Virus genome (UHGV): UHGV-0166778
DNA: 24,404 nt
Source of the DNA: a virus
Direction: 5' to 3' (one strand)
Made by a program: the position numbers and the translations under genes. Shown one piece after another: positions 9,170-24,404 of the stretch; positions within the stretch are counted from its first letter, which is position 1, and every line of letters begins with the position of its first letter. A model generated the notes under the pieces. That model was not told the origin of the DNA, searched no databases, and saw nothing but the letters and a program-made list of their open reading frames with translations.

Positions 9170-10936
9170 ATGAACACCACACTGACACCCGCAGATCTCG
9201 ATCCCCGTCGGCAGGCCATGCTGCTGTACTTTCAGGGATACCGCGTAGCCCGCATTGCTGAAATGCTGGGCGAGAAAGTTGCAACCGTTCACAGCTGGAA
9301 AAAACGCGACAAGTGGGGTGACTATGGGCCGCTGGATCAGATGCAGCTCACCACCGCCGCACGCTACTGCCAGCTCATCATGAAGGAGCACAAAGAAGGG
9401 AAAGATTTCAAAGAGATTGACCTGCTGGCGCGCCAGTCTGAGCGCCACGCGCGGATCGGCAAGTTTAACAATGGCGGCAACGAAGCCGACTTAAACCCTA
9501 ACGTCGCCAACCGCAACAAAGGCCCGCGTCGTCAGCCGGAAAAGAACGTTTTCACTGATGAACAGATTGAGAAGCTGGAAGAAATCTTCCATTCCTCCAT
9601 GTTCAACTACCAGCGCCACTGGTGGGAAGCCGGAAAAACCAACCGCATCCGCAACCTGCTGAAGTCACGCCAGATCGGCGCGACCTTCTATTTTGCCCGT
9701 GAAGCCCTGATTGACGCCCTGCTTACCGGACGTAACCAGATTTTCCTTTCTGCCAGTAAGGCTCAGGCCCACGTCTTTAAACAATACATCATCGACTTCG
9801 CCAAAGAAGTCGAGGTGGAGCTAAAAGGCGATCCGATGGTGCTTCCTAACGGAGCCACGCTTTACTTCCTCGGCACCAATGCCCGCACGGCCCAGAGTTA
9901 TCACGGCAACCTGTATCTGGATGAATATTTCTGGATACCGAAATTCCAGGAGCTGCGCAAAGTGGCTTCCGGGATGGCTATTCACAAAAAATGGCGACAA
10001 ACCTATTTTTCCACGCCATCCAGCCTGACCCACAGTGCTTATCCGTTCTGGTCCGGTGCGCTGTTCAACCGTGGACGCAACAAAGCTGACAAGGTGGACA
10101 TCGACCTGTCCCACAGCAATCTGGCCCCCGGCCTGCTGTGCGCAGACGGGCAATACCGCCAGATAGTCACCGTGGAAGATGCGGTGCGCGGCGGCTGTAA
10201 CCTGTTCGACCTCGACCAGCTACGCATGGAGTACAGCCCGGACGAATACCAGAACCTGCTGATGTGCGAGTTCGTGGACGATCTCGCGTCCGTGTTCCCG
10301 CTCAGCGAACTGCAGGCGTGCATGGTGGACAGCTGGGAAGTCTGGACCGACTTTCATGCACTGGCCCTGCGCCCGTTTGGCTGGCGCGAAGTGTGGATCG
10401 GTTATGACCCGGCAAAAGGTACGCAGAACGGCGACAGTGCCGGATGCGTGGTGGTGGCTCCGCCAGCCGTGCCGGGTGGTAAGTTCCGCATTCTTGAGCG
10501 TCACCAGTGGCGCGGGATGGACTTCCGCGCCCAGGCTGACGCCATCAAAAAACTCACCGAACAGTACAACGTGACCTATATCGGTATCGACTCAACCGGC
10601 GTTGGTCACGGGGTTTATGAGAACGTGAAAGCATTCTTTCCTGCCGTCCGGGAGTTTGTCTACAACCCCAATGTTAAAAACGCCCTGGTACTCAAGGCCT
10701 ACGACATTATCAGCCACCGCCGTCTGGAGTTTGACGCCGGGCACATCGACATTGCGCAGTCATTCATGGCAATCCGTCGCGCCACCACCGCCAGCGGCAA
10801 CCGCCCGACCTATGAAGCCAGCCGCAGCGAAGAAGCCAGCCACGCCGATCTGGCCTGGGCAACGATGCACGCACTGTTTAACGAACCGCTGCAGGGCGAA
10901 TCCGCCAATACCAGCAATATTGTGGAGATTTTTTGA
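9170..10936 (+). CDS. P: Terminase ATPase (large) subunit (P2 gpP-like)
   Basis: 588-aa ORF MNTTLTPADLDPRRQAMLLYFQGYRVARIAEMLGEKVATVHSWKKRDKW..., P2 gpP-like in length and N-terminus. Confidence 0.9.
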   Translation: MNTTLTPADLDPRRQAMLLYFQGYRVARIAEMLGEKVATVHSWKKRDKWGDYGPLDQMQLTTAARYCQLIMKEHKEGKDFKEIDLLARQSERHARIGKFNNGGNEADLNPNVANRNKGPRRQPEKNVFTDEQIEKLEEIFHSSMFNYQRHWWEAGKTNRIRNLLKSRQIGATFYFAREALIDALLTGRNQIFLSASKAQAHVFKQYIIDFAKEVEVELKGDPMVLPNGATLYFLGTNARTAQSYHGNLYLDEYFWIPKFQELRKVASGMAIHKKWRQTYFSTPSSLTHSAYPFWSGALFNRGRNKADKVDIDLSHSNLAPGLLCADGQYRQIVTVEDAVRGGCNLFDLDQLRMEYSPDEYQNLLMCEFVDDLASVFPLSELQACMVDSWEVWTDFHALALRPFGWREVWIGYDPAKGTQNGDSAGCVVVAPPAVPGGKFRILERHQWRGMDFRAQADAIKKLTEQYNVTYIGIDSTGVGHGVYENVKAFFPAVREFVYNPNVKNALVLKAYDIISHRRLEFDAGHIDIAQSFMAIRRATTASGNRPTYEASRSEEASHADLAWATMHALFNEPLQGESANTSNIVEIF

Positions 10937-11964
10937 TGGGAAAGAGTAAGAAAAACCGCGCTGCGGCGACGAATCAGCTCAAGCATAAAAGCCAGACTTC
11001 AGCCGAAGCATTCAGCTTTGGCGATCCCGTTCCTGTTCTGGACCGCCGTGAACTGCTGGACTATGTGGAATGCGTACAGATGGACCGCTGGTATGAGCCG
11101 CCCGTCAGCTTTGACGGACTGGCACGAACCTTCCGCGCTGCCGTGCATCACAGCTCACCGATTGCAGTAAAATGCAACATTCTGACCAGTACCTACATCC
11201 CTCACCCGCAGCTCAGCCAGCAGGCTTTTTCACGTTTTGTGCAGGACTATCTGGTATTTGGTAACGCCTACCTGGAGAAACGCACGAACCGCTTCGGTGA
11301 AGTTATCGCCCTTGAGCCTGCTCTGGCAAAATACACCCGACGCGGGTTAGACCTGGATACCTACTGGTTTGTGCAATACGGTATGACAACCCAGCCGTAT
11401 CAGTTCACGAAAGGCAGCATTTTTCATCTGATGGAACCGGACATTAACCAGGAGATCTACGGCCTGCCCGGCTATCTTTCTGCCATTCCGTCCGCCCTGC
11501 TCAATGAGTCCGCCACGCTGTTCCGCCGCAAGTATTACATTAACGGTAGTCATGCAGGCTTCATCATGTACATGACCGATGCTGCGCAGAACCAGGAGGA
11601 CGTGAACAACCTCCGCAATGCAATGAAAAGTGCCAAAGGTCCGGGTAACTTCCGCAACCTGTTTATGTACTCGCCTAACGGCAAAAAGGACGGCCTTCAG
11701 ATCATCCCTTTGTCAGAAGTTGCGGCGAAGGATGAGTTTCTAAATATCAAGAACGTGAGCCGGGATGACATGATGGCAGCACATCGCGTTCCGCCACAGA
11801 TGATGGGGATTATGCCGAATAATGTTGGGGGGTTTGGGGATGTGGAGAAGGCTAGTAAAGTATTTGTTCGTAATGAGTTATTACCGTTGCAAAAAAGATT
11901 ACAGGAAATAAACATATGGCTAGATGAGGAAATAGTAACATTCGATAGTTATCAGCTTACTTGA
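10933..11964 (+). CDS. Q: Portal protein (P2 gpQ-like)
   Basis: 343-aa ORF overlapping the P stop (ATGA). Confidence 0.9.
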   Translation: MMGKSKKNRAAATNQLKHKSQTSAEAFSFGDPVPVLDRRELLDYVECVQMDRWYEPPVSFDGLARTFRAAVHHSSPIAVKCNILTSTYIPHPQLSQQAFSRFVQDYLVFGNAYLEKRTNRFGEVIALEPALAKYTRRGLDLDTYWFVQYGMTTQPYQFTKGSIFHLMEPDINQEIYGLPGYLSAIPSALLNESATLFRRKYYINGSHAGFIMYMTDAAQNQEDVNNLRNAMKSAKGPGNFRNLFMYSPNGKKDGLQIIPLSEVAAKDEFLNIKNVSRDDMMAAHRVPPQMMGIMPNNVGGFGDVEKASKVFVRNELLPLQKRLQEINIWLDEEIVTFDSYQLT

Positions 11965-11970
11965 AAAAAC

Positions 11971-11998
11971 GGAGTCAGATATTCTGACTCCTTATTTC
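11971..11998. terminator. Bidirectional rho-independent terminator between convergent Q and the TM-TIR gene
   Basis: Stem ggagtcag / ctgactcc with a 5-nt loop, flanked by an A-run on one side and a T-rich tract on the other. Confidence 0.5.
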
Positions 11999-12599
11999 AA
12001 CCAAGAATGGACTTCAATGACAAATTGAGCTTATCAATTAATTTTTCATCCTCATAGTTTACAGACTTGATGTTTTTGAGCATCGCAGGCAATTCAGCAT
12101 CACCAATTATCACAGGAATTATAGGAACATAGTTTTCATCTTTTACCGTAGCTTTACGGAGAAAGCCCTCTACCTCCTTTCTTATATATGACTCCATATC
12201 TTCATTAGACAGAAGCAATATAGCCGCAGCGCTATTGTCTATAGCCTGATTAATTTGCTTTTCAATAATCTGCCCGGGCAATATGTTATTTTCATCAAAC
12301 CATACATCAAAACCTAACTCATTAAGCTTACAAGTTATTTGACGGGCCTTATCTTTTTCTTGTACGGGATACATTAGAAATATTTGCTTTCCTTTTTTAA
12401 CGGCCTTTAGTCTTCTTTCCCTTAATTTCATTAACACAATCAAACTCAGGCCAGAATAGGCAAAAGATAATCCAATAACGGAGATGATAATCTCATCATT
12501 AACTCCTTGAAATAAATATGGGAGCCGTGGAATAAGAGCCATAAGAAACCCAACAACAGCCAATGCAATTGAAATAATATAAAGAGTATTTTTTTTCAT
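11997..12599 (-). CDS. Membrane-anchored TIR-like domain protein (two N-terminal TM helices plus C-terminal TIR-like fold)
   Basis: 200 aa. N-terminal hydrophobic helices (LYIISIALAVVGFLMALIP; IIISVIGLSFAYSGLSLIVLM), then IFLMYPVQEKDKARQITCKLNELGFDVWFDENNILPGQ...AIDNSAAAILLLSNEDMESYIRKEVEGF, which follows the TIR beta-A / alpha-A / beta-C pattern. AT-rich, unlike the flanking phage core. Confidence 0.6.
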   Translation of the reverse strand: MKKNTLYIISIALAVVGFLMALIPRLPYLFQGVNDEIIISVIGLSFAYSGLSLIVLMKLRERRLKAVKKGKQIFLMYPVQEKDKARQITCKLNELGFDVWFDENNILPGQIIEKQINQAIDNSAAAILLLSNEDMESYIRKEVEGFLRKATVKDENYVPIIPVIIGDAELPAMLKNIKSVNYEDEKLIDKLNLSLKSILG

Positions 12600-13016
12600 T
12601 TACACACCCTTAATCCACAAAACAAAGGAAGCAAAAAATAATATGCCGACTAAATTACACCCAATACATAAAACCCAAATTTGACCTTTTGGATTTCCTG
12701 TTCGCCCTTCCCAATCTTGATGAAAAGACATGATCCCCAGTAATACAAAAAGAGAGAAGGCAAGAAAGCTAGTAGTTCCAATGTACTGATTAACCACTTG
12801 GTTAACCGTGGTTACTGTTTGAACAGTTTTAGTCAAATCATATAAATTCAACAATGATGCACCAATTGTCGATAATATCAACTCATTCCCAAAGTAAAAA
12901 TCACTCTTTTGCCAACCAGAGGATCTGGCAAGTTTTTTTACAAAAGCCCCACATAGAATCATCAACAATGGAAAAATTAAAGCAACAACGTATTTATTAC
13001 CAATGACATCAATCAT
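12600..13016 (-). CDS. Small polytopic membrane protein, function unknown; first gene of an operon with the TM-TIR gene
   Basis: 138 aa with about four hydrophobic helices; its stop codon directly abuts the ATG of the TM-TIR gene; AT-rich. Confidence 0.55.
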   Translation of the reverse strand: MIDVIGNKYVVALIFPLLMILCGAFVKKLARSSGWQKSDFYFGNELILSTIGASLLNLYDLTKTVQTVTTVNQVVNQYIGTTSFLAFSLFVLLGIMSFHQDWEGRTGNPKGQIWVLCIGCNLVGILFFASFVLWIKGV

Positions 13017-13206
13017 TAATCATCATTCCTTCAATAAATCGCATCATGCCTTTTTGTTTTTAGCTTCATCCACAACCAGTCACCATCGACATCAATATAT
13101 CACATACTAAATATATAATAATTTTATCGAACTATACAAAGCAACCAAGAGTAAAAATAACATACTCTGCCTTACATTCGAAAGGACATTATCATCCCAA
13201 CGCGCG

Positions 13207-13225
13207 CTCGTATCCCCGCCACGCC
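13207..13225 (-). other. Candidate cos (cohesive end) core
   Basis: Reverse complement reads GGCGTGGCGGGGATACGAG; the first 13 nt match the P2/186 cos overhang as I recall it (GGCG[A/T]GGCGGGGAAAGCA). An isolated GC-rich block in an AT-rich intergenic region, at the map position expected for cos. Confidence 0.3.
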
Positions 13226-13270
13226 TGCCCGCTTTATGTAGTAGTTTTCATGCAGGTGCATGATCTACGC

Positions 13271-13294
13271 AAAAGCCCGCCAGTTCTGGCGGGC
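13271..13294 (-). terminator. Rho-independent terminator downstream of the 13343..14185 gene
   Basis: Stem gcccgcc / ggcgggc with a short loop; on the minus strand it is followed by TTTT. Confidence 0.4.
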
Positions 13295-13342
13295 CTTAGC
13301 AAAAACGATCCTCAAACGATCATGCGATCTCATGCAGCATAG

Positions 13343-14185
13343 TCATGCACGATCATTTGACTCAGCATCTGCTGCACGCTTGCTGCGCGAAGATGCACTT
13401 TTACTACCAATCTTTCGACAGTTCTTTCTATCCCTGGCTTCATTTTCTTTAAATTTGTTATATGTCTCAGTATCAAAAAACGAAATTGTTTCAACCTCAT
13501 CTTTTGGTATGAGCACACGGAAATCTTCGATATTAAGCCGAGACATTCCACTTATCACACCACTATCAAGATAATGTTGGTGATAGTTAGTCGTGATACT
13601 AATCGTTAGATCATCTTTATCCCGATATCCGCTTAACATCGGGAGAAGTTCAAGGTGTTCTGAAAGCCCGTTTTCTAACGCCGGACAAGTAACAAGACCA
13701 ACATAGATTTTGCGAGACGACAGAGTTGCTATGATCGGAAACTGTCTTGCGGACGCTTCCATGAGTAATGATTCGAAAGCGTTATTACCCACAGCTTTAG
13801 CTAAGGCATCCCAGCGACGATCTCCACGTGATGTGCGTAACTTATTTCCAAAACCTGAAATCGCAGCGAGGACAATTGAAATCATAACCCATGCTATCTG
13901 TTTGATTTCATTTATTCTTTGAAGTTTGTCTTTCGATGAAGACAACATGCCGTTAAAACTGTCAGGTGTTAGATTCAAGGCATTAGCCAGCCAACGAAAC
14001 CCTCCGCTGACGTTCAAAATAAAGGTGAAAAAACCGCCAAGGAGAAAAAAAACGATACCCCAGGCAGCCACAAAAAAATAAGCGTCCCAGCCGTTGGAAC
14101 GCTTATATCGGTATCTTGTTGAAAGTGATAGGTTTACATAAATAAAACCACTAACCAAAATCACTGCTAAAAGTAATGTTGCCAT
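13343..14185 (-). CDS. Membrane-anchored protein of unknown function (N-terminal TM helices plus about 170-aa soluble domain)
   Basis: 280 aa with hydrophobic segments (LLLAVILVSGFIYV; YFFVAAWGIVFFLLGGFFTFIL; IAWVMISIVLAAISGF) and a charged Ser/Arg/Lys-rich C-terminus; AT-rich; start overlaps the stop of the upstream small gene (TAATG). Confidence 0.5.
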   Translation of the reverse strand: MATLLLAVILVSGFIYVNLSLSTRYRYKRSNGWDAYFFVAAWGIVFFLLGGFFTFILNVSGGFRWLANALNLTPDSFNGMLSSSKDKLQRINEIKQIAWVMISIVLAAISGFGNKLRTSRGDRRWDALAKAVGNNAFESLLMEASARQFPIIATLSSRKIYVGLVTCPALENGLSEHLELLPMLSGYRDKDDLTISITTNYHQHYLDSGVISGMSRLNIEDFRVLIPKDEVETISFFDTETYNKFKENEARDRKNCRKIGSKSASSRSKRAADAESNDRA

Positions 14186-14400
14186 TATCTGGTTCTATTA
14201 GTTTTCTCTTTTACAGTGCTCGTTTTGATGCCTTCAAGCTTATCCATCTGTGCCTTGATGGCATCCATTGCTCTTTTGTTAGACAAGTCTACGGACACAA
14301 AACCATCTTTACTAAGATTGAGTTTGTCCTGGTTCTCTTTAAGAACCCTTGCCAGACGTTCAACTGGGTTACCCAGGCTAAATGCGGCGATGCTTGACAT
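14185..14400 (-). CDS. Small hydrophilic protein of unknown function, translationally coupled to the downstream membrane protein
   Basis: 71-aa ORF MSSIAAFSLGNPVERLARVLKENQDKLNLSKDGF...; AT-rich cargo region. Confidence 0.45.
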   Translation of the reverse strand: MSSIAAFSLGNPVERLARVLKENQDKLNLSKDGFVSVDLSNKRAMDAIKAQMDKLEGIKTSTVKEKTNRTR

Positions 14401-14670
14401 AACTCCCCCTTTTCACATGGCGCGGAAGTCTACACTCCGACGCCTACAACCTCAACAGATTATCTTTAAAATTTAGACAACAATATCATCTGTTGATTTC
14501 GTTACTTAAACTTAAGTTCAATGCGCTCGATCATGCAAGCGGTTTCTTAAGAACTGTTAATTTCCTGGCATATATAGTGGTTAAGGTAACAAATTGACAC
14601 TAACGCCTCGCATAGCTCGTTGTTCAACCTTGCTGACGCCAGAAGCAAGTTCAGACGCCAGCAACGTTTC

Positions 14671-14904
14671 TTAATGCAGCCAGCTGTCGTCTTCCCACAC
14701 CTTCTGCATAATTTTCATTACTTGTTTCCTTTCTTCGTCCAGTTGCAGTCCGGTCAGTTCCACACCGTTAGAGCTACCTTTACGGATACGAATTACCGTT
14801 TTGGGATACAGGGGGCGCAGATTGCGGTAAAGCTCGGATTCAAAGGCGTCCAGGGTAGACTGGCTAATCTTCTGCTCTTTATCGATCATTATTTCAATGC
14901 GCAT
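14671..14904 (-). CDS. dinI: DinI-family protein
   Basis: Internal start MRIEIMIDKEQKISQSTLDAFESELYRNLRPLYPKTVIRIRKGSSNGVELTGL...VWEDDSWLH fits the DinI length and pattern (MRIE... N-terminus, acidic W-containing C-terminus); GAGGTG ribosome-binding site upstream. Confidence 0.75.
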   Translation of the reverse strand: MRIEIMIDKEQKISQSTLDAFESELYRNLRPLYPKTVIRIRKGSSNGVELTGLQLDEERKQVMKIMQKVWEDDSWLH

Positions 14905-14914
14905 AAAAGTCACC

Positions 14915-15103
14915 TCAACTGATGACATCCATTGAGCGGTTGTATTCGTGGGTTCTGATTTTTGCCATAAGTTCATCTGTCAGTTCAGAAACCCACTGCA
15001 AAGCCAGCCCCTTCTCTTCATCACTACACTCACTAGCCGCTACAAGCTTAAGAAAAAAATCAATGCGCTGGAGCTTCAAAGACTCCAAAAAATAGTCCTG
15101 CAT
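14915..15103 (-). CDS. Putative Tum-like antirepressor (small protein transcribed from the LexA-controlled promoter)
   Basis: 62-aa ORF with a GGAGGA ribosome-binding site, directly downstream of a LexA-box promoter and upstream of dinI; the position matches tum of phage 186. Confidence 0.4.
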   Translation of the reverse strand: MQDYFLESLKLQRIDFFLKLVAASECSDEEKGLALQWVSELTDELMAKIRTHEYNRSMDVIS

Positions 15104-15143
15104 CTTTCCTCCTATAACACCAAAGAAATACTGTATAAATAAC

Positions 15144-15186
15144 CACTGTTTACATTTACAGTATATAATAATCTTACTGATGTAAA
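15144..15186 (-). promoter_or_regulatory. SOS-regulated promoter: LexA box (CTGT-N8-ACAG) overlapping the -10 element
   Basis: Plus strand 15146..15161 is ctgtttacatttacag. On the minus strand, -35 TTTACA (15181..15186), a 17-bp spacer and -10 TACTGT (15158..15163) are overlapped by the LexA box. Confidence 0.6.
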
Positions 15187-15255
15187 ACGTTTTTTTACGT
15201 TCATCGGCCTGATATGCCTGGTATTATTAAGAGCACGAATTGTTAACCCGCGTAA

Positions 15256-17670
15256 TTAATACAGGTTTCGCCACTTATCATCTTCCTGCAAACGCTGGTT
15301 CCGATAGAAGATACGCAGGCCTGCTCCTGACGGAATACTGCCGCCGCGAAGCAGTAAATCGACCTCTTTCTCGCTGCCATCAAATCCCCTGGACTTCAGT
15401 TCATACACGAGCTGCTGTCGCTGATGATCTGTAATTCGCTGTTTGTAGTCTTTACGCCGTTTCGGTTTCACCAGGCGTAACCTTGCTGCCAGTTCCCGGC
15501 GCTCTTTTTTGCTCATACTGTGCAGGTAATCGTGCAACTCCTTGTCATCCATGCGGGTGATATCCGTTCTGGTATCTCCATCAGCTGATTTGTCTTTCCC
15601 TTGTTGGTACAAATTTTCAGCAAGGGGACAGTTATTGCCACGAGTCCAAGGGGCGCAAGCGCCCTGGTCGGCTGCCGCCTCCTGAACGTCAACGGCCTTA
15701 CGAACCATTTTCCACTTCACTGCATGAGTGCAGATCTTGCCCTCTGCAATGGGTGACCAGATGCCATAAATACGAATACCGTGATCGCCATAGGCGGTCG
15801 GCTCTTCGTTGATTTCATAAGCGGTTCTGATGAGGTGATATTTGCGGGGAACCAGTACGCCGCCCTGCTTCATGATGTAGGAGGCAAAACAACCAGCATC
15901 AGCAGCAGCCAGGATGGCATCAAGGCGCGGGTTATCCAGTACCGGCGCACCTGCTTTTTTGTCACCCTGTTGCCTTGCCGCCTGACCAGCCAGCAATCGC
16001 AGTTCACGGTAAGCCTGACGCCCCGGAATGCCAAAGAAGCGGAATTGCTGAACACGATGCAGAGACGCCCAGGCATTAACGTATTCAGCGTTATCACGCA
16101 GGGATTTACCCGTTTCCTTACTGATCTCGCCAGCCAGACCACGCCCGTCAATATTCTTACTGATATATTTCGCAATGTAGCTTGTCGGCGTTCCTTTGCG
16201 CGGGTTTATCAGCTCAGACTTAAAGCGTGGCCCCGTGTTATTGCCCAGCTCCTCGCGGTCTTCACGGATGGCAAACTTACGCAACAATGCAGTAATGGCG
16301 CGGCGGTCTTTTTTGCGCATGAAACACAACAGGTGCCAGTGAACTGTGCCGTCATGATGCGGCTCAGCCACCCGCACGCCATACCAGCGCAACCCGGCTT
16401 TGTGCATAGCCTTACGAAATGCAGCAAACATGCCGACCAGATAATCGCTGCTTTGTCTTACTGTCGCGTTGGTCCAGGTCGGGTTTGGCCTGCCGTTATT
16501 TAGCGTGGAATGGAAACGTGACGGACAGGTGATGGTGTAGAAAACGGCGCAGTCACCACGCATTTCCGCGATAAGCTCCAGGCCTTTAACACAGGCCATC
16601 ATCTCGTTGCGGCGATGCGCCGGGTTGCTGCTGCTGGCGTTTACCACATCCTCCATGTTCAGCGTGTCGCCGTCTTCGTTCACCAGTTCATGAGAACGGA
16701 AAAACTCCAGCGACTTACGGCGCTGCTCACGTTTATGCATCACGGCTTCATAGCTGACATAGGGAGATGCTTTTTTGCTGACCAGGCAGACAGCACGCAA
16801 CTGCTCTTCCCGCCATTCGCAACGCATCTTCCATAATTTCCGATACCACCAGTCGGCGCACAGCATACGCGCCAGCGAACCCGGAATGAGTTCATAAGGC
16901 ACAGGTTTGCGGCGGTTTCTTTTCCGGCGGAGTTGCTCAAACGCTGGCGGTATGACATCCAGTCGCAGGGTTTCTGCAGCCACCTTTTCCCATGTCTTGC
17001 GGATTTCTTCTGGCTTAACATCATCGGAGGCGTACAAATCACCACAAGCGGCATCAAGACACATGCTCATATGCGCAGCGACAAGGGTAGACAGGCGTTT
17101 CACCTGATCCTGACTCATTTCAGGCAGGATCATCAGACCGTCCAGCCCTTCATGGCTTGCCATAAAACGAAAAGATGCAGATAGCTGGCTGTCGCGTACA
17201 TGCTCCAGTCGTTCCAGACATGGCTTAATCGTCTCACGCAAATAGCGGGAATAAGCCTTTGGCCTGCCCAGGCTGCTGAAATATTCAATACGTTGCATCA
17301 GCGGCTTGCTGATATGGGAAGGCTGGGCGTTGACGTCAGTCAGAATGACCATGTCTGGATTAAAACGCTGCTGCTCATGCGCCATCTTTGCCCGGCTAAT
17401 GAGCTTATCCTGCTCCATTTCGCGTTGGACAGGATCACGGGATTCATTAAAGAAATAACGCTCCCAGACCTGATCACTCAGTGCCTCGCGGCGCAGTTGT
17501 TCCTGCTCGTTATCAGTAGCGTACAGAGTGATCAGGTTTGAAAGCGCAGAAACCGGCGCAACTTCCGCCGGGTCCAGATAAGGGTTAATGGCCTTTTTCG
17601 GGCTGTTCCATGAGAACGATGCGGCAGCTTCGTTAAAGCTGCAGCAGTTGTTCATATCGGCATGACTCAT
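15256..17670 (-). CDS. A: Replication initiation endonuclease (P2/186 gpA-like)
   Basis: 804-aa ORF in the conserved early-operon position; size and position match gpA. Confidence 0.85.
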
Positions 17671-21015: not shown

Positions 21016-21648
21016 ATGTTAAACATCAGAATGGGTTCCGATACGGGAGGTAAGGCAGCTATTGGAAGGCTGCTTGAGGCTTATGGATTCACAACTAAGC
21101 AGGCATTAAGCGAGCACCTGAATGTCTCAAAAAGCACTATGGCAAACAGAGTGTTACGTGACAGCTTTCCTGCTGACTGGATAATTCAGTGCGCACTAGA
21201 AACCGGTGTTTCGTTGCTTTGGTTAGCTACAGGACAGGGAAGCATGAAAGGAGGAGCTGAGCCTGAGAAAAGTTCTCATAATGAGAACAAACAAGCAATT
21301 AAACCGTTATCCAAACTCATAACTCCAGCTATTCCTAAAGGAACCCTGGAGAATGGACAACTCAGTATTGATGAAGAGATTTTCCTAGACCACAGCATAT
21401 TACCTGCAGATTATGAAGAATTGATGTTCTTAGAAACCCCTACTAATTGTTATCTCATCGATAAATCAATTAAACAGGTCAGCAATGGATTCTGGCTTAT
21501 CAATATTGATGGAATGATTATTGTTGCAAAAATCATGCGGATTCCCGGCAATAAGATTGTAGTAAATCAAGATGAAGCGTCTTTCGAGTGCTCTACTGAT
21601 GATGTGGAAGTTATTGGGCGTGCAGTCAAAGTAATAAAGAGTATCTAA
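21016..21648 (+). CDS. cI: CI immunity repressor (phage 186 CI family)
   Basis: 210-aa ORF with an N-terminal helix-turn-helix region (LLEAYGFTTKQALSEHLNVSKSTMANRV...CALETGVSLLWLATGQG) resembling 186 CI; followed directly by int. Confidence 0.8.
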   Translation: MLNIRMGSDTGGKAAIGRLLEAYGFTTKQALSEHLNVSKSTMANRVLRDSFPADWIIQCALETGVSLLWLATGQGSMKGGAEPEKSSHNENKQAIKPLSKLITPAIPKGTLENGQLSIDEEIFLDHSILPADYEELMFLETPTNCYLIDKSIKQVSNGFWLINIDGMIIVAKIMRIPGNKIVVNQDEASFECSTDDVEVIGRAVKVIKSI

Positions 21649-21650
21649 AC

Positions 21651-22664
21651 ATGACTGTCAGAAAACAGCCAAACGGTAAATGGTTGTGCGAGTGCTATCC
21701 CCATGGACGCAATGGCAAGCGCGTGCGTAAGCAATTTGCTACGAAAGGCGAAGCCATTGCTTTTGAAAGCTTCACAATGGAAGAAGTGAACAAAAAGCCA
21801 TGGCTGGGGGAAAAGGAAGATCGGCGACACCTATCAGAATTAATTGAGCAGTGGTATTCCCTGTATGGTCAAACACTCGCAGACCCCAAGCGCCTCATGG
21901 CGAAACTTAGAATTATCTGTAATGGTCTAGGCGATCCCATCGCCTCAGAGCTGACAGCCGGTGATTTTACTAAATACCGAGAAGCGCGGCTAAAAGGTGA
22001 AGTGCGAAATGAAGAGGGCACGCTTATGTCGCCCGTTAAGCCCCGCACTGTAAACCTTGAACAGCGCAACCTATCATCTGTTTTTGGCACACTGAAAAAG
22101 TTGGGCCACTGGTCAGCCCCCAATCCGCTTGCCGGGCTGCCAACATTTAAAATTGCTGAGGGTGAACTGGCGTTCCTGACCCCGGAAGAAATTAAACGTC
22201 TGCTGGATGCCTGTGCTGATTCTCAAAGCCCCAGTCTACTTTTAATTGCAAAAATATGCCTGGCCACCGGCGCGCGCTGGAGTGAAGCCGAAAATCTGCA
22301 GGGCCATCAGTTATCGAAATACCGGATCACCTATACCAAGACTAAGGGCAAGAAAAACCGTACCGTGCCGATATCTCAGGATCTGTATGACGAACTCCCT
22401 AAGAACAGAGGGAAGTTATTCACTCCTTGCAGAAAAGCCTTTGAACGAGCAGTAAAGCGAGCTGACATTGAGTTACCAGAGGGCCAATGCACCCACGTTC
22501 TGCGCCATACATTCGCCAGCCATTTTATGATGAATGGTGGTAATATTTTGGTTTTACGAGATATTTTAGGCCACTCTGATATAAAAATGACTATGATTTA
22601 TGCACATTTTTCCCCAGAGCATCTTGAAGATGCAGTAATAAAAAACCCTCTGGCTAATTTATAA
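21651..22664 (+). CDS. int: Tyrosine integrase (P2/186 family)
   Basis: 337-aa ORF with a C-terminal catalytic region (ARWSEAENL...HVLRHTFASHFMMNGGNILVLRDILGHSDIKMTMIYAHF) showing the R...H-x-x-R...Y signature. Confidence 0.9.
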   Translation: MTVRKQPNGKWLCECYPHGRNGKRVRKQFATKGEAIAFESFTMEEVNKKPWLGEKEDRRHLSELIEQWYSLYGQTLADPKRLMAKLRIICNGLGDPIASELTAGDFTKYREARLKGEVRNEEGTLMSPVKPRTVNLEQRNLSSVFGTLKKLGHWSAPNPLAGLPTFKIAEGELAFLTPEEIKRLLDACADSQSPSLLLIAKICLATGARWSEAENLQGHQLSKYRITYTKTKGKKNRTVPISQDLYDELPKNRGKLFTPCRKAFERAVKRADIELPEGQCTHVLRHTFASHFMMNGGNILVLRDILGHSDIKMTMIYAHFSPEHLEDAVIKNPLANL

Positions 22665-22690
22665 TAACTTTACAAATATAGGATTTTGAT

Positions 22691-23476
22691 ATGCTGTCTG
22701 AAATAGAAATCAATGATGAAATTCAGCGAGGCAACATTTTTGATCCATTAACGGTATTAAATGGAACATTTAAAGTTCAATCTGCAAGCATTGATCTCTC
22801 TGTAAAAACAATACATATACCAGACTGTCAAGACAATAAAAAAACACGTAACAACCATATCCTGATGCCAGGGGAAACTGTAATATTAGAGTTAAATGAA
22901 AAATTCCAACTTGCAAAAAATTTAGCTGGTGTAATATTCCCAAGAAACACACTATCAAAAAATGGAATTATCATGACGAATCCAGGGCATATTGACCCTG
23001 GATATAATGGCATAATTTCAATATATCTTGTAAATATGTCAAAAGAACCATTCTCATTGACACAAAATTCTGCAGTAGCCCGAATGTTATTATTTAAAAC
23101 AATAATACCGACTAAAGGTTACCAAGGAAAAATCGTAAATAAATTGGATGATGATCAACTTTCTAGAATGGGAAAGGATTTTGCAGGACTTGATAAACGA
23201 CTTCCGAAAGAAATCAATAAAATCATTGCGAAAAAAACTGGCTTTATAATTGCGATAGCAGCCTTAATGCTAACGTTGATAACCCTAGCAATTCCTTTCT
23301 TATTTCAAATAGTATCCAGTAATGTCAGTAGTACAAAAGATCTTGAATTAACAATAAAAGTTCAACAAAATGAAATAAATAGCCTAAAAAGCACCGTTGA
23401 ATTACTAAAAAATGCTAAATCAAACGAACCAAAGGTTGATGCTAAAGTAAGCACCCCAAAAGCTATACGGGAGTAA
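22691..23476 (+). CDS. dCTP deaminase (Dcd)/dUTPase-fold protein with a C-terminal TM helix and coiled-coil tail
   Basis: 261 aa. The N-terminal ~185 aa show Dcd-family landmarks (LNGTFKVQSASIDLSV; PGETVILELNEKFQL; GIIMTNPGHIDPGYNGIISIYLVN); followed by a TM segment (FIIAIAALMLTLITLAIPFLF) and a Lys/Glu-rich coiled coil. AT-rich; ThyX start codon 2 nt after its stop. Confidence 0.7.
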   Translation: MLSEIEINDEIQRGNIFDPLTVLNGTFKVQSASIDLSVKTIHIPDCQDNKKTRNNHILMPGETVILELNEKFQLAKNLAGVIFPRNTLSKNGIIMTNPGHIDPGYNGIISIYLVNMSKEPFSLTQNSAVARMLLFKTIIPTKGYQGKIVNKLDDDQLSRMGKDFAGLDKRLPKEINKIIAKKTGFIIAIAALMLTLITLAIPFLFQIVSSNVSSTKDLELTIKVQQNEINSLKSTVELLKNAKSNEPKVDAKVSTPKAIRE

Positions 23477-23478
23477 AA

Positions 23479-24246
23479 ATGATAAAAATCTCTGATTTAT
23501 CAGTAAAATGCATATCACACCCTTCATTTGAAAGTAATGTTTTTGATGATTTTTTAAACACATCATCATTGCAATGGGTTCGCAAAGGGCAGGCGACCGA
23601 AGCTGAGCTTCTGGTAGAGGCCGCTGGCAGGCTATGTTATATGTCTTTTGGAGAGGATAAGCAGTCTCCACGGACTACAAGTCAATATATCAACAATTTA
23701 ATTATTCAAGGGCATGAAAGTGTCTTAGAACATTTGAACTGGACCTTTTTAATTACTGGGGTATCTCGTGCATTTACACACCAGCTAGTTCGGCATAGAG
23801 CTGGTTTTTCATATAGCCAGTTATCCCAACAGTATCATGATGAATCCGATGCTGAATTCGTAGCCCCTATAGAAGTAAAAAATGACCCAGAATTGTTTAA
23901 GTCATGGTGCCAACATATTGAAAGTAGTCTGGATTTTTATAAGCAATCCTTGAAAAAAATCCGTGAAAACCAATCGTATGAGAACAAAAAAGAAAAAATG
24001 CGGGCCCTAAGAAGCGCTTCTCGCTCTATATTGCCTAATGCAACCGAGACAAAAATAATCGTCACAGCAAATGCTCGCGCAATTCGACACTTCTTCGAAA
24101 TGAGAGGAGCAATACAGGGTGACTATGAAATGAGAACAGTTTCAGAAAAACTTTACGATATTGTAACTCAAGATGCCCCTGCCTTGTTCCAAGATTTCGA
24201 AAAAGTCAATGGAGGAACGGCGCACGTTAAGATAATAAAACAATAA
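23479..24246 (+). CDS. thyX: Flavin-dependent thymidylate synthase (ThyX family)
   Basis: 255 aa with the ThyX signature region GHESVLEHLNWTFLITGVSRAFTHQLVRHRAGFSYSQLSQQY (RHR-x7-8-S motif) and C-terminal ETKIIVTANARAIRHFFEMR; strong GGGAG ribosome-binding site. Confidence 0.85.
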   Translation: MIKISDLSVKCISHPSFESNVFDDFLNTSSLQWVRKGQATEAELLVEAAGRLCYMSFGEDKQSPRTTSQYINNLIIQGHESVLEHLNWTFLITGVSRAFTHQLVRHRAGFSYSQLSQQYHDESDAEFVAPIEVKNDPELFKSWCQHIESSLDFYKQSLKKIRENQSYENKKEKMRALRSASRSILPNATETKIIVTANARAIRHFFEMRGAIQGDYEMRTVSEKLYDIVTQDAPALFQDFEKVNGGTAHVKIIKQ

Positions 24247-24256
24247 GACAAGATCT

Positions 24257-24281
24257 CGCCAGTTCAACGAACTGGCGTTTT
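24257..24281 (+). terminator. Rho-independent terminator after thyX
   Basis: Stem cgccagtt / aactggcg with loop caacg, followed by tttt. Confidence 0.5.
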
Positions 24282-24363
24282 ACCATTCAATTTTTTTGGC
24301 GGCATTTTGGCGGCAGAGAACTAAAACCCATATAAACCCCTTAACACCACATAAACATAATAC

Positions 24364-24404
24364 CTGTCTCTTATACACATCTGACGCTGCCGACGACTTA
24401 ATAG
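24364..24404. other. Illumina Nextera adapter read-through plus index (non-biological)
   Basis: ctgtctcttatacacatctgacgctgccgacga is the Nextera transposase adapter (Tn5 mosaic end CTGTCTCTTATACACATCT plus the read-2 tail); the final cttaatag is consistent with the reverse complement of an 8-nt i5 index. Confidence 0.85.

Follow-up and report, generated by a model that had tools for sequence, protein, structure and literature searches.

Directly downstream of the integrase gene of a 186/P2-like Escherichia coli prophage, the virus genome UHGV-0166778 carries a two-gene cassette in which a membrane-anchored protein of the dCTP deaminase/dUTPase (Dcd/Dut) fold is coupled to a variant of the thymidylate synthase ThyX. 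The window, meaning the whole stretch of DNA analysed, comprises 24,404 nucleotides (nt). Calling of open reading frames (ORFs) places four co-oriented genes on its plus strand: a 186-type cI repressor gene (21016-21648; Phage_CI_repr 1.5e-29, Phage_CI_C 3.3e-29), a tyrosine integrase gene, int (21651-22664; Int_N 9.3e-29, Phage_integrase 6.7e-25), gene 1 of the cassette (22691-23476; 261 amino acids) and gene 2, or thyX (23479-24246; 255 amino acids). The two cassette genes had been delimited identically in a first-pass annotation made from the sequence alone, which described them as an AT-rich, translationally coupled operon with its own terminator, and this description holds in each respect. 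The GC content of the cassette is 0.31-0.38, against approximately 0.55 in the structural genes. Gene 1 begins 26 nt after the int stop codon, and a ribosome-binding site read from the sequence, AGGA (22680-22683, plus strand), lies 7 nt before its ATG. The gene 1 stop codon (23474-23476) is followed, 2 nt further on, by the ATG of thyX, whose own ribosome-binding site, GGGAG (23469-23473, plus strand), is read within the 3' end of gene 1, as expected of translational coupling; in most homologous loci the stop and start codons overlap outright. Beyond thyX, a hairpin with a 9-bp stem, a 3-nt loop and a trailing UUUU (24257-24281, plus strand; -12.7 kcal/mol, z = -3.6) resembles an intrinsic terminator, and scores under the T-run threshold of the consensus scan.

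Gene 1 encodes three structurally distinct portions. The first, a cytoplasmic head of the Dcd fold (residues 1-150; 22691-23140, plus strand), is matched at residues 52-137 by the Pfam families DCD (PF22769; 5.9e-15) and dUTPase (PF00692; 1e-12), while a match to phrog_1663 spans residues 2-241. The equivalog model for dCTP deaminase, TIGR02274, scores the protein at 56.2 bits, under its cut-off of 92.8, and the NCBIfam dut models likewise match well under theirs. An alignment of the gene 1 family was built and used as a search profile, and this profile detects the bifunctional dCTP deaminase-dUTPase 4xjc at 1.3e-16, with an alignment that begins at residue 1, as well as 2qxx at approximately 1e-16. 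The AlphaFold2 model has a predicted local distance difference test score (pLDDT) of 82 overall and above 90 in the head. Foldseek pairs the model with 4xjc at 5.6e-12 and with the Mycobacterium tuberculosis bifunctional enzyme and Escherichia coli Dcd at 1e-10 to 5e-09; the structural partners of the head comprise 4xjc, M. tuberculosis 2qlp, 2qxx and 4a6a, archaeal 9ln3 and 8y1w, and E. coli Dcd (1xs1). Viral structures in BFVD match the head only, at a query-normalised TM-score of at most 0.47. The Dcd fold proposed by the first-pass annotation is thus borne out by both structure and profile comparison. The transmembrane (TM) helix and coiled-coil tail that it read behind the fold hold as well.

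The second and third portions are the TM helix and the tail. A juxtamembrane helix (23150-23200, plus strand) bears a K-D-F...R motif (D163, F164 and R170) and leads into a single TM helix at residues ~184-208 (23240-23314, plus strand), where the Kyte-Doolittle index reaches its maximum of 2.65. In the model, a helix at 154-164 is succeeded by one continuous helix at 166-244. In nearly all family members, this one among them, the N-terminal side of the TM helix is the richer in basic residues, which predicts an N-in/C-out orientation. The remainder (23315-23473, plus strand) forms a helical, coiled-coil-like periplasmic tail, with a predicted length of 50-65 amino acids, and is the fastest-evolving part of the gene. 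The layout of TM helix and tail recurs in essentially every family member, and relatives of gene 1 are labelled Lpp or FtsL in other databases.

The residues that define catalysis in Dcd and Dut are largely missing from this head. In HMMER alignments to 4xjc and 2qxx, the Dcd segment 'ITLELfN' pairs with 'IISIYLVN' of gene 1, so that the Dcd catalytic Glu (E138 in E. coli) corresponds to Tyr112 (codon 23024-23026, plus strand). The first-pass annotation had suspected a substitution here, and the family removes any ambiguity: among 128 non-redundant members the position is occupied by Thr in 110, Tyr in 9, Cys in 8 and Ala in 1, and never by Glu or Asp. Within the GRSSxxR motif the first Arg is mostly Pro, Arg115 is mostly Phe and otherwise Lys, Ser or Ile, and one Ser/Thr is kept. 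The motif II Arg of dUTPases is replaced by Pro and the motif IV Gln by Thr or Arg. The C-terminal motif V, RGxxGFGSTG, is absent from the family; in its place the K-D-F...R helix runs into the TM segment. Owing to the missing Glu the head cannot deaminate, and on this sequence basis it is not a dCTP deaminase. A canonical deoxynucleoside triphosphate (dNTP) pyrophosphatase activity is also doubtful, because the motif II Arg/Ser and the motif IV Gln are not conserved.

Other parts of the head are, in contrast to its catalytic residues, under strict constraint. The signature loop MTNPGHIDPGYNG (residues 95-107; 22973-23011, plus strand) corresponds to dUTPase motif III (G-x-I-D-x-x-Y-x-G) and retains its catalytic Asp. 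It contains the stretch GHIDPGYNG, in which the family never departs from D102 and has Tyr or Phe at position 105, the place of the sugar-stacking Tyr of dUTPases. Across the 128 members T96, N97, P98, G99, H100, D102, P103, G107 and N115 are invariant, and of the juxtamembrane residues D163 is kept in 124, F164 in 124 and R170 in 123 (~97%). The D-F...R helix may take the place of the C-terminal lid found in Dcd and Dut enzymes. An invariant TNPGHxDPG loop together with the D-F...R motif marks a selected ligand site as opposed to a decayed domain, and suggests that the head is a nucleotide-binding site with non-canonical chemistry.

The product of gene 2 was called a clear ThyX by the first-pass annotation. 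This is correct as to family, with 164.8 bits to Thy1 (PF02511; 2.6e-48) against a cut-off of 24.8, 154.8 bits to TIGR02170 against a cut-off of 87.9, and the M. tuberculosis enzyme as the nearest solved structure (7e-42; ~40% identity), but the protein is not a plain ThyX. The motif RHRAGFSYSQLSQQY (residues 105-119; 23791-23835, plus strand) stands where M. tuberculosis ThyX reads 'RHR-HFSYSQLSQRY'; it keeps R105, H106, R107, S116 and Y119, and places Gln (Q118; codon 23830-23832) at the position of M. tuberculosis R107 and Thermotoga maritima R90. This Gln is found in all 52 partners from the first loci, in 108 of 108 partners overall, and in each of the 120 nearest database homologues. When homologues were clustered at 50%, the best ~20 ThyX representatives were Gln-type and the next relatives Arg-type. 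A one-residue insertion after RHR was considered as a marker of the clade and rejected, as Arg-type relatives have it also; since these next relatives share the extra residue and yet have Arg, it is the Arg-to-Gln change that defines the clade. In the T. maritima enzyme Arg90 is conserved and makes a direct hydrogen bond to dUMP (PMC3498832); it also hydrogen-bonds the proposed general acid Tyr91, and the R90A substitution strongly slows methylene transfer (PMC8316439). The remaining residues for catalysis and for FAD and dUMP binding are kept, with H79, E84, H85, R97, R182 and R209 invariant across the Gln-type clade. Gene 2 thus encodes a catalytically equipped but specialised ThyX. The idea that the Gln-type enzymes have switched to dCMP is weakened by retention of the uracil-activating Arg (M. 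tuberculosis R199).

The genes for the two proteins are linked at nearly all loci. A genome scan (51 loci), viral contigs and a metagenome scan (80 loci) yielded 137 unique gene 1 homologues, and linkage was counted over the 116 unique loci whose sequence runs on for 300 bp or more past gene 1. ThyX lies directly 3' of gene 1 on the same strand at 97 of these, often with overlapping stop and start codons; at a further 15 ThyX is present within 4 kb in another arrangement, at one a ThyA-family synthase stands in its stead, and the remaining three break off before the expected ThyX position. The association is equally strict when approached from the ThyX side. A DCD gene lies upstream in 3/3 genomic loci picked in this way, and a ThyX-seeded viral scan found a member of the gene 1 family beside all six Gln-type ThyX genes with upstream DNA; 71 Arg-type viral ThyX genes, taken as a control, have no such neighbour within 4 kb.

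The cassette is distributed patchily across at least seven phyla, in prophages, integrative and conjugative elements (ICEs), defence islands and isolated islets. Among 5426 complete E. coli genomes the 1.76-kb region occurs in two, at 99.8-99.9% identity. Searches of 50,697 cultured phage genomes and of the PLSDB plasmids with gene 1 by tblastn returned only ordinary, partial Dcd/Dut matches, and megablast of the region against the cultured phage genomes gave no match. The first-pass annotation had treated the pair as an accessory of P2-like prophages; it does lie inside such a prophage, after int, but it is not specific to P2-like phages and constitutes a mobile and self-contained two-gene unit, in which the two proteins have evolved together.

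In its larger form, common in Acidobacteriota and soil metagenomes, the module comprises four genes (loci L013, L016, L020, L031 and L037, and ~30 soil metagenome loci such as L090, L101 and L110). The additions are a MazG-like protein of ~330-350 amino acids with Zn-ribbon-like CxxC motifs, which 36 loci carry within 4 kb, as well as a NUDIX-WGR protein of ~255 amino acids, which 29 loci carry and which is transcribed divergently where the module is complete. The NUDIX proteins of this form match the PADLOC candidate PDC-S07. A PfkB kinase accompanies the module in six loci. The MazG-like, NUDIX-WGR and PfkB proteins are the only recurrent extras among 119 neighbouring ORFs in 126 Pfam families, and a fixed set of accessory neighbours was accordingly set aside.

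The single ThyA-bearing locus (L069 8716-10508; IMG/VR UViG_2585428058_000004) is instructive as to what the cassette requires. Here a ThyA-family enzyme replaces ThyX beside the gene for the Dcd-TM protein, the module adjoins a phage portal gene, and a PfkB kinase follows the ThyA-type gene. The enzyme keeps the catalytic Cys, has a 13-amino acid insertion before it, and carries Asp at the position of E. coli N177. Asp at this position gives ThyA enzymes a preference for dCMP, the N177D/N229D mutants and T4 gp42 (Asp179) being known cases, and a dCMP-specific C5 transferase is accordingly predicted here. Such non-orthologous displacement of ThyX by ThyA implies that a C5-pyrimidine transferase is the required partner of gene 1, and this one locus hints that cytosine nucleotides may be involved.

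Placement of the pair within the prophage is resolved by the complete genome of E. coli TUM12355. There the prophage resides at ssrA, with an intact transfer-messenger RNA gene flanking its ogr/D end, and a 45-bp copy of the ssrA 3' end lies ~165 bp past the thyX stop codon, ahead of a second integrase gene, itself part of a different island. An attachment site between int and position 22691, which the first-pass annotation had considered as grounds for excluding the pair from the prophage, is not what is found; the ssrA repeat beyond thyX makes the gene pair phage cargo of the interval between int and the attachment site (att). The contig itself ends ~47 bp before the att core, which is expected at ~24411, past the end of the window. 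Its final 41 nt (24364-24404) match the Nextera transposase adapter (CTGTCTCTTATACACATCTGACGCTGCCGACGA + 8 nt), and the complete genome continues differently after ...ACATAATAC; these nucleotides are thus a sequencing artefact. No tRNA genes are present in the window. Between the hairpin and this artefact stands a tandem 11-nt repeat, TTTTGGCGGCA x2 (24294-24315, plus strand), in which TGGCGGCA occurs twice, 11 nt apart. The TTTTGGCGGCA repeat pair recurs beside ssrA on the other prophage arm in TUM12355, and these tandem repeats may be arm-type sites for the integrase (Int) in attP.

The order cI-int-gene1-thyX is kept in eight IMG/VR contigs of related 186-like prophages, where the pair recurs beside int. 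Among these prophages Int is 90-93% identical and ThyX 77-79%, whereas gene 1 as a whole is 48-60% identical, with 57-73% in the head and 30-39% in the TM helix and tail. Judged by these identities, cassette and int have a mosaic evolutionary history. The int-att interval of P2-like prophages has been described as a minor defence hotspot that accounts for 3% of P2 systems, in a study whose main text makes no mention of ThyX, thymidylate or dCTP (PMC13586616). The cassette is thus cargo at a known accessory and defence position of P2-like prophages.

The consensus scan found no promoter-like or terminator-like site on the plus strand between int and gene 1. In phage 186, cI and int are carried on one lysogenic transcript. 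By analogy, cI is likely the first gene of a lysogenic transcript that reaches into the cassette, and lysogens would probably express the two genes from the distal part of the cI-int operon.

In TUM12355, the island that follows the ssrA repeat (L001 10022-17764) encodes, besides an integrase, a serine recombinase, two ParB-like proteins and a type I restriction-modification (RM) system; as this second integrase-bearing island comes right after the repeat, ssrA carries tandem elements. The TUM12355 prophage copy is degraded, with its portal, tape measure and replication genes present as pseudogenes. Its ogr-ssrA interval, which the window does not contain, holds an AT-rich gene for a hypothetical protein of 238 amino acids (L002 17027-17743) whose sole match is a sub-threshold one to TssR_C, and which may be a second att-proximal cargo gene. 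Within the window, positions 11997-15255, between the portal gene (10933-11964) and a replication gene (15256-17670), correspond to the classical Q-A defence hotspot of P2, with a GC content of 0.34-0.45. Encoded there, on the minus strand at 11997-12599, is a 200-amino acid TIR-domain protein (TIR_2 3.6e-17) with weak PADLOC matches to TIR and ThsB-like models; ORFs of 138 and 280 amino acids with no family match follow, together with a DinI-like gene (14671-14976, minus strand). The interval possibly holds a TIR-based system.

The surroundings of the cassette in other hosts include a number of conflict systems. In Citrobacter, the pair is cargo beside an ICE, or lies beside an RM system, GmrSD and an AAA_15/DUF3696 ATPase. 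Its flanking genes in Pseudomonas aeruginosa encode an NYN protein, a 1708-amino acid helicase and a 1598-amino acid nSTAND protein, and in a marine integrative element, where it again follows an integrase, they encode a PLD-helicase, a NERD protein and an AAA_23-MC2-CTD6 protein. In two loci, from a Solirubrobacterales metagenome-assembled genome (MAG) and an alphaproteobacterial MAG (L022 12122-13729 and L047 7797-9563), a defensive dCTP deaminase of the cytidine deaminase (CDA) type (PADLOC dCTPase, 8e-154) is directly adjacent; this could reflect co-location within an island or a functional link through dUTP/dUMP. At an Acidobacteria locus (L020 13554-15488), a Schlafen-group-3-like helicase (SLFN-g3_helicase 1.5e-69) adjoins the ThyX gene.

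Taken together, these features suggest that the cassette is probably an undescribed, nucleotide-based anti-phage module. In the form favoured here, to which a probability of roughly 0.45 is assigned, it would be a deoxypyrimidine-nucleotide conflict module, expressed in the lysogen and placed or gated at the membrane. The two genes would constitute self-contained, horizontally mobile cargo between int and attP. The gene 1 product would most likely form a trimer, anchored at the inner membrane by one TM helix per subunit and by the periplasmic coiled coil, with cytoplasmic heads that bind a deoxypyrimidine nucleotide without deaminating it, and ThyX would be produced in fixed proportion to it. 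The pair is envisaged to work at the dUTP/dUMP node, and possibly at dCTP/dCMP: the head would bind or hydrolyse a deoxypyrimidine nucleotide, and ThyX would then modify the resulting monophosphate at C5. Upon a presumed trigger, the deoxypyrimidine pool needed by a superinfecting phage would be drained or distorted, with the TM helix and coiled-coil stalk serving to position or gate the activity at the membrane. The MazG-like and NUDIX pyrophosphatases of the larger variant would increase the drain.

A number of observations weigh against such a role. A Dcd/Dut-type enzyme beside ThyX is also the expected appearance of a plain operon for dTMP supply, and diversion of a nucleotide pool does not explain a membrane anchor. 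The phosphate-binding motif II Arg/Ser and the motif IV Gln, as described above, are not kept in the family, and a promoter for the cassette was not found by the consensus scan, and transcription in the lysogen is assumed from phage 186. A blind survey of the 119 neighbouring ORFs returned mostly ordinary genes, with approximately one tenth defence-like, and several loci are two-gene islets amid housekeeping genes. Owing to these heterogeneous, mostly non-defensive neighbours and to the islets, the association with defence is real but moderate. PADLOC-DB v2 has no match for gene 1 or gene 2. From position and context, a role in anti-phage defence or superinfection exclusion is plausible.

Of the competing explanations, one that shares the conflict setting is abortive infection by a sensor and effector, in which the head would be a deoxypyrimidine-nucleotide receptor controlling a toxic TM bundle or coiled coil, and ThyX would govern how much ligand is present, by clearing it from healthy cells (e.g. 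dUMP, in the manner of an enzymatic antitoxin) or by producing it, until infection shifts the ligand and the membrane depolarises. Loss of most phosphate-binding and catalytic residues of Dcd and Dut, alongside an invariant motif III loop for base and sugar binding, is what a receptor would leave, and a nucleotide-binding domain joined to TM helices is the usual effector layout of CBASS and Pycsar. The overlap of stop and start codons points to a fixed stoichiometry, reminiscent of toxin-antitoxin pairs, and evolution is fastest in the TM helix and tail. A lone TM helix in each subunit would, however, be a weak pore former, the tail resembles a plain coiled coil under low sequence constraint, and the four-gene variant, with its MazG-like and NUDIX enzymes, suits an enzymatic cascade better than a ligand switch. 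The explanation is regarded as unlikely.

An equally unlikely alternative is that the cassette is a metabolic moron with no part in conflict, in which the dUTPase-like enzyme would act with the thymidylate synthase to increase the dTMP available for replication of the element, or to lessen the host's dependence on ThyA and FolA. The steps from dUTP to dUMP to dTMP do form a coherent pathway, nearly all ThyX catalytic residues are retained, and several loci lie amid housekeeping genes. Dcd/Dut and ThyX are, moreover, common in lytic phages, as the 71 ordinary viral ThyX loci attest and PHROG annotations concur. What such a moron leaves unaccounted for is a family-wide anchoring in the membrane with a periplasmic tail, features that metabolic Dcd and Dut enzymes do not have, a head without the Glu or the residues of motifs II and IV, and a partner ThyX invariably bearing Gln where substitution by Ala causes strong impairment. 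The cassette also sits on the lysogenic side, after int, and not with the replication genes; the gene 1 family is absent from the 50,697 cultured phage genomes, and the cassette is far rarer than would be expected of a generally useful metabolic gene. As for the particular moron raised by the first-pass annotation, one that rewires the flux from dCTP to dTTP, deamination is an improbable route, because both the catalytic Glu and the Arg/Ser residues of GRSS..R are missing from the family.

More speculative, and somewhat less probable than either of the above, is a new kind of immune or competition system founded on a flavin-dependent thymidylate synthase. The Gln-type ThyX, or in one lineage the Asp-bearing ThyA, would make a non-canonical C5-modified deoxypyrimidine nucleotide or act as an irreversible dC/dU sink, and the Glu-less Dcd trimer, wired through the membrane to its periplasmic coiled coil, would be the nucleotide-handling partner or a receptor that couples an event at the envelope, such as the entry of phage DNA, to nucleotide chemistry.

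Less probable again is a pathway for modified nucleotides that follows the logic of phage base replacement, whereby a dNTP pyrophosphatase and a C5-pyrimidine transferase would yield a non-canonical deoxypyrimidine nucleotide, such as 5-methyl-dCMP or 5-hydroxymethyl-dUMP, with which the element would label its own DNA or poison the replication of phages. The dCMP-switching Asp of the ThyA-type replacement, the PfkB kinases in six loci, the MazG-like proteins in 36 and the NUDIX proteins in 29 would each find a place in such a pathway, and the change in ThyX does strike a substrate-contacting residue adjoining the proposed general acid Tyr. Only a single ThyA-type locus was found, however, and the Gln-type ThyX keeps the N3-side uracil-activating Arg (M. 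tuberculosis R199, T. maritima R174), for which reason dUMP should still be its substrate. Most loci are without nearby genes for a DNA polymerase, a glycosylase or other modification functions, and chromosomal islets in free-living bacteria fit base replacement poorly. Lastly, a place for the pair outside the prophage, in host chromosomal DNA or within an adjoining island, as the immediately following second integrase and island in TUM12355 and a GC content unlike that of the phage backbone might suggest, is refuted by the ssrA 3'-end repeat placed after thyX and before that integrase, with intact ssrA at the other end, by the gene order kept in eight independent viral contigs, and by the putative Int arm repeats that follow thyX and recur on the other arm.

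Should the cassette prove protective against phage, nucleotide-pool immunity would gain a fourth fold, joining those of the CDA deaminases, dGTPases and ATP nucleosidases, and the cassette would be the first such system with a ThyX-family synthase and a nucleotide-binding component that spans the membrane. Strict one-to-one pairing of a Dcd head lacking Glu with an Arg-to-Gln ThyX also offers telling residues, namely Q118 of ThyX and D102/H100 of the head. ThyX is an antibacterial drug target that is absent from humans, and a natural variant at a substrate-contacting residue is of enzymological interest in its own right. Furthermore, the cassette gives concrete content to the sparsely populated and recently noted int-att hotspot of P2-like prophages.

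Comparison with characterised enzymes and systems places the cassette near several of them. With Dcd and the bifunctional dCTP deaminase-dUTPases (4xjc, 2qlp/2qxx, 1xs1, 1ogh), gene 1 shares the fold of its head from residue 1, the N-terminal segment 'MLLSD...vQpsSiDL' and the 'IDPGY/F.G' loop with its Asp; it differs in that Glu is absent from 128/128 members, GRSS..R is not conserved, a TM helix and periplasmic coiled coil are added, and pairing with ThyX is obligate. With canonical ThyX (M. tuberculosis 2af6/3gwc, T. maritima 1o26), gene 2 shares RHR...S...Y, the His, Glu and Arg of GHESVLEH, and R172 and R199 in M. tuberculosis numbering; its clade is set apart by an invariant Gln at R107 and by a Dcd-TM gene that is always nearby. 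The T4 pair of gp56, a dCTPase/dUTPase, and gp42, a dCMP hydroxymethylase, resembles the cassette variants in combining pyrophosphatase-type enzymes (here Dcd/Dut-like, MazG-like and NUDIX) with a C5-pyrimidine transferase, and gp42 has in common with the ThyA-type variant the Asp that specifies dCMP. The logic differs, in that the cassette resides in prophage cargo and chromosomal islets and not in a lytic replication module, uses ThyX in >99% of loci, bears a membrane anchor, and has no cognate polymerase or glucosyltransferase.

Among defence systems, those reported from the int-att hotspot of P2-like prophages occupy the same position as the cassette, which is not a listed system in the main text of that study (PMC13586616). 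The Dcd-TM/ThyX pair was not described in the literature searched for it, and the proteins WP_053891068 and WP_053891067 are not found in the DefensePredictor supplementary tables examined (PMC13092281). The DefensePredictor system DS-4 (PMC13092281) sets a precedent for a thymidylate-synthase-family enzyme in a validated E. coli defence system. DS-4, the nearest published counterpart, comprises a ThyA-family enzyme (PF00303), an adenylate kinase, a base-hypermodification protein and a TIR protein, with neither ThyX nor a Dcd-fold protein; being a ThyA-type, multi-gene TIR system, it is distinct from the cassette. The nucleotide-depletion defences, which include the defensive dCTP deaminase (Tal et al. 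2022), AvcD and dGTPase, may share with the cassette a logic of dNTP starvation, and both are found on mobile elements and in defence islands. The defensive dCTP deaminase and AvcD are, however, CDA zinc deaminases (H/CxE...PCxxC) with an N-terminal kinase-like domain, in contrast to the Dcd beta-barrel of gene 1, and the PADLOC dCTPase models, which recognise true members beside the cassette in loci L022 and L047, do not match gene 1. Known nucleotide-depletion systems, moreover, have no synthase partner and no membrane anchor, whereas the cassette has both and deamination is excluded for it. Thus, nucleotide-centred mobile cargo is already known as a kind, and what is new here is the pairing of a membrane-tethered, Glu-less Dcd-fold protein with a Gln-type ThyX.

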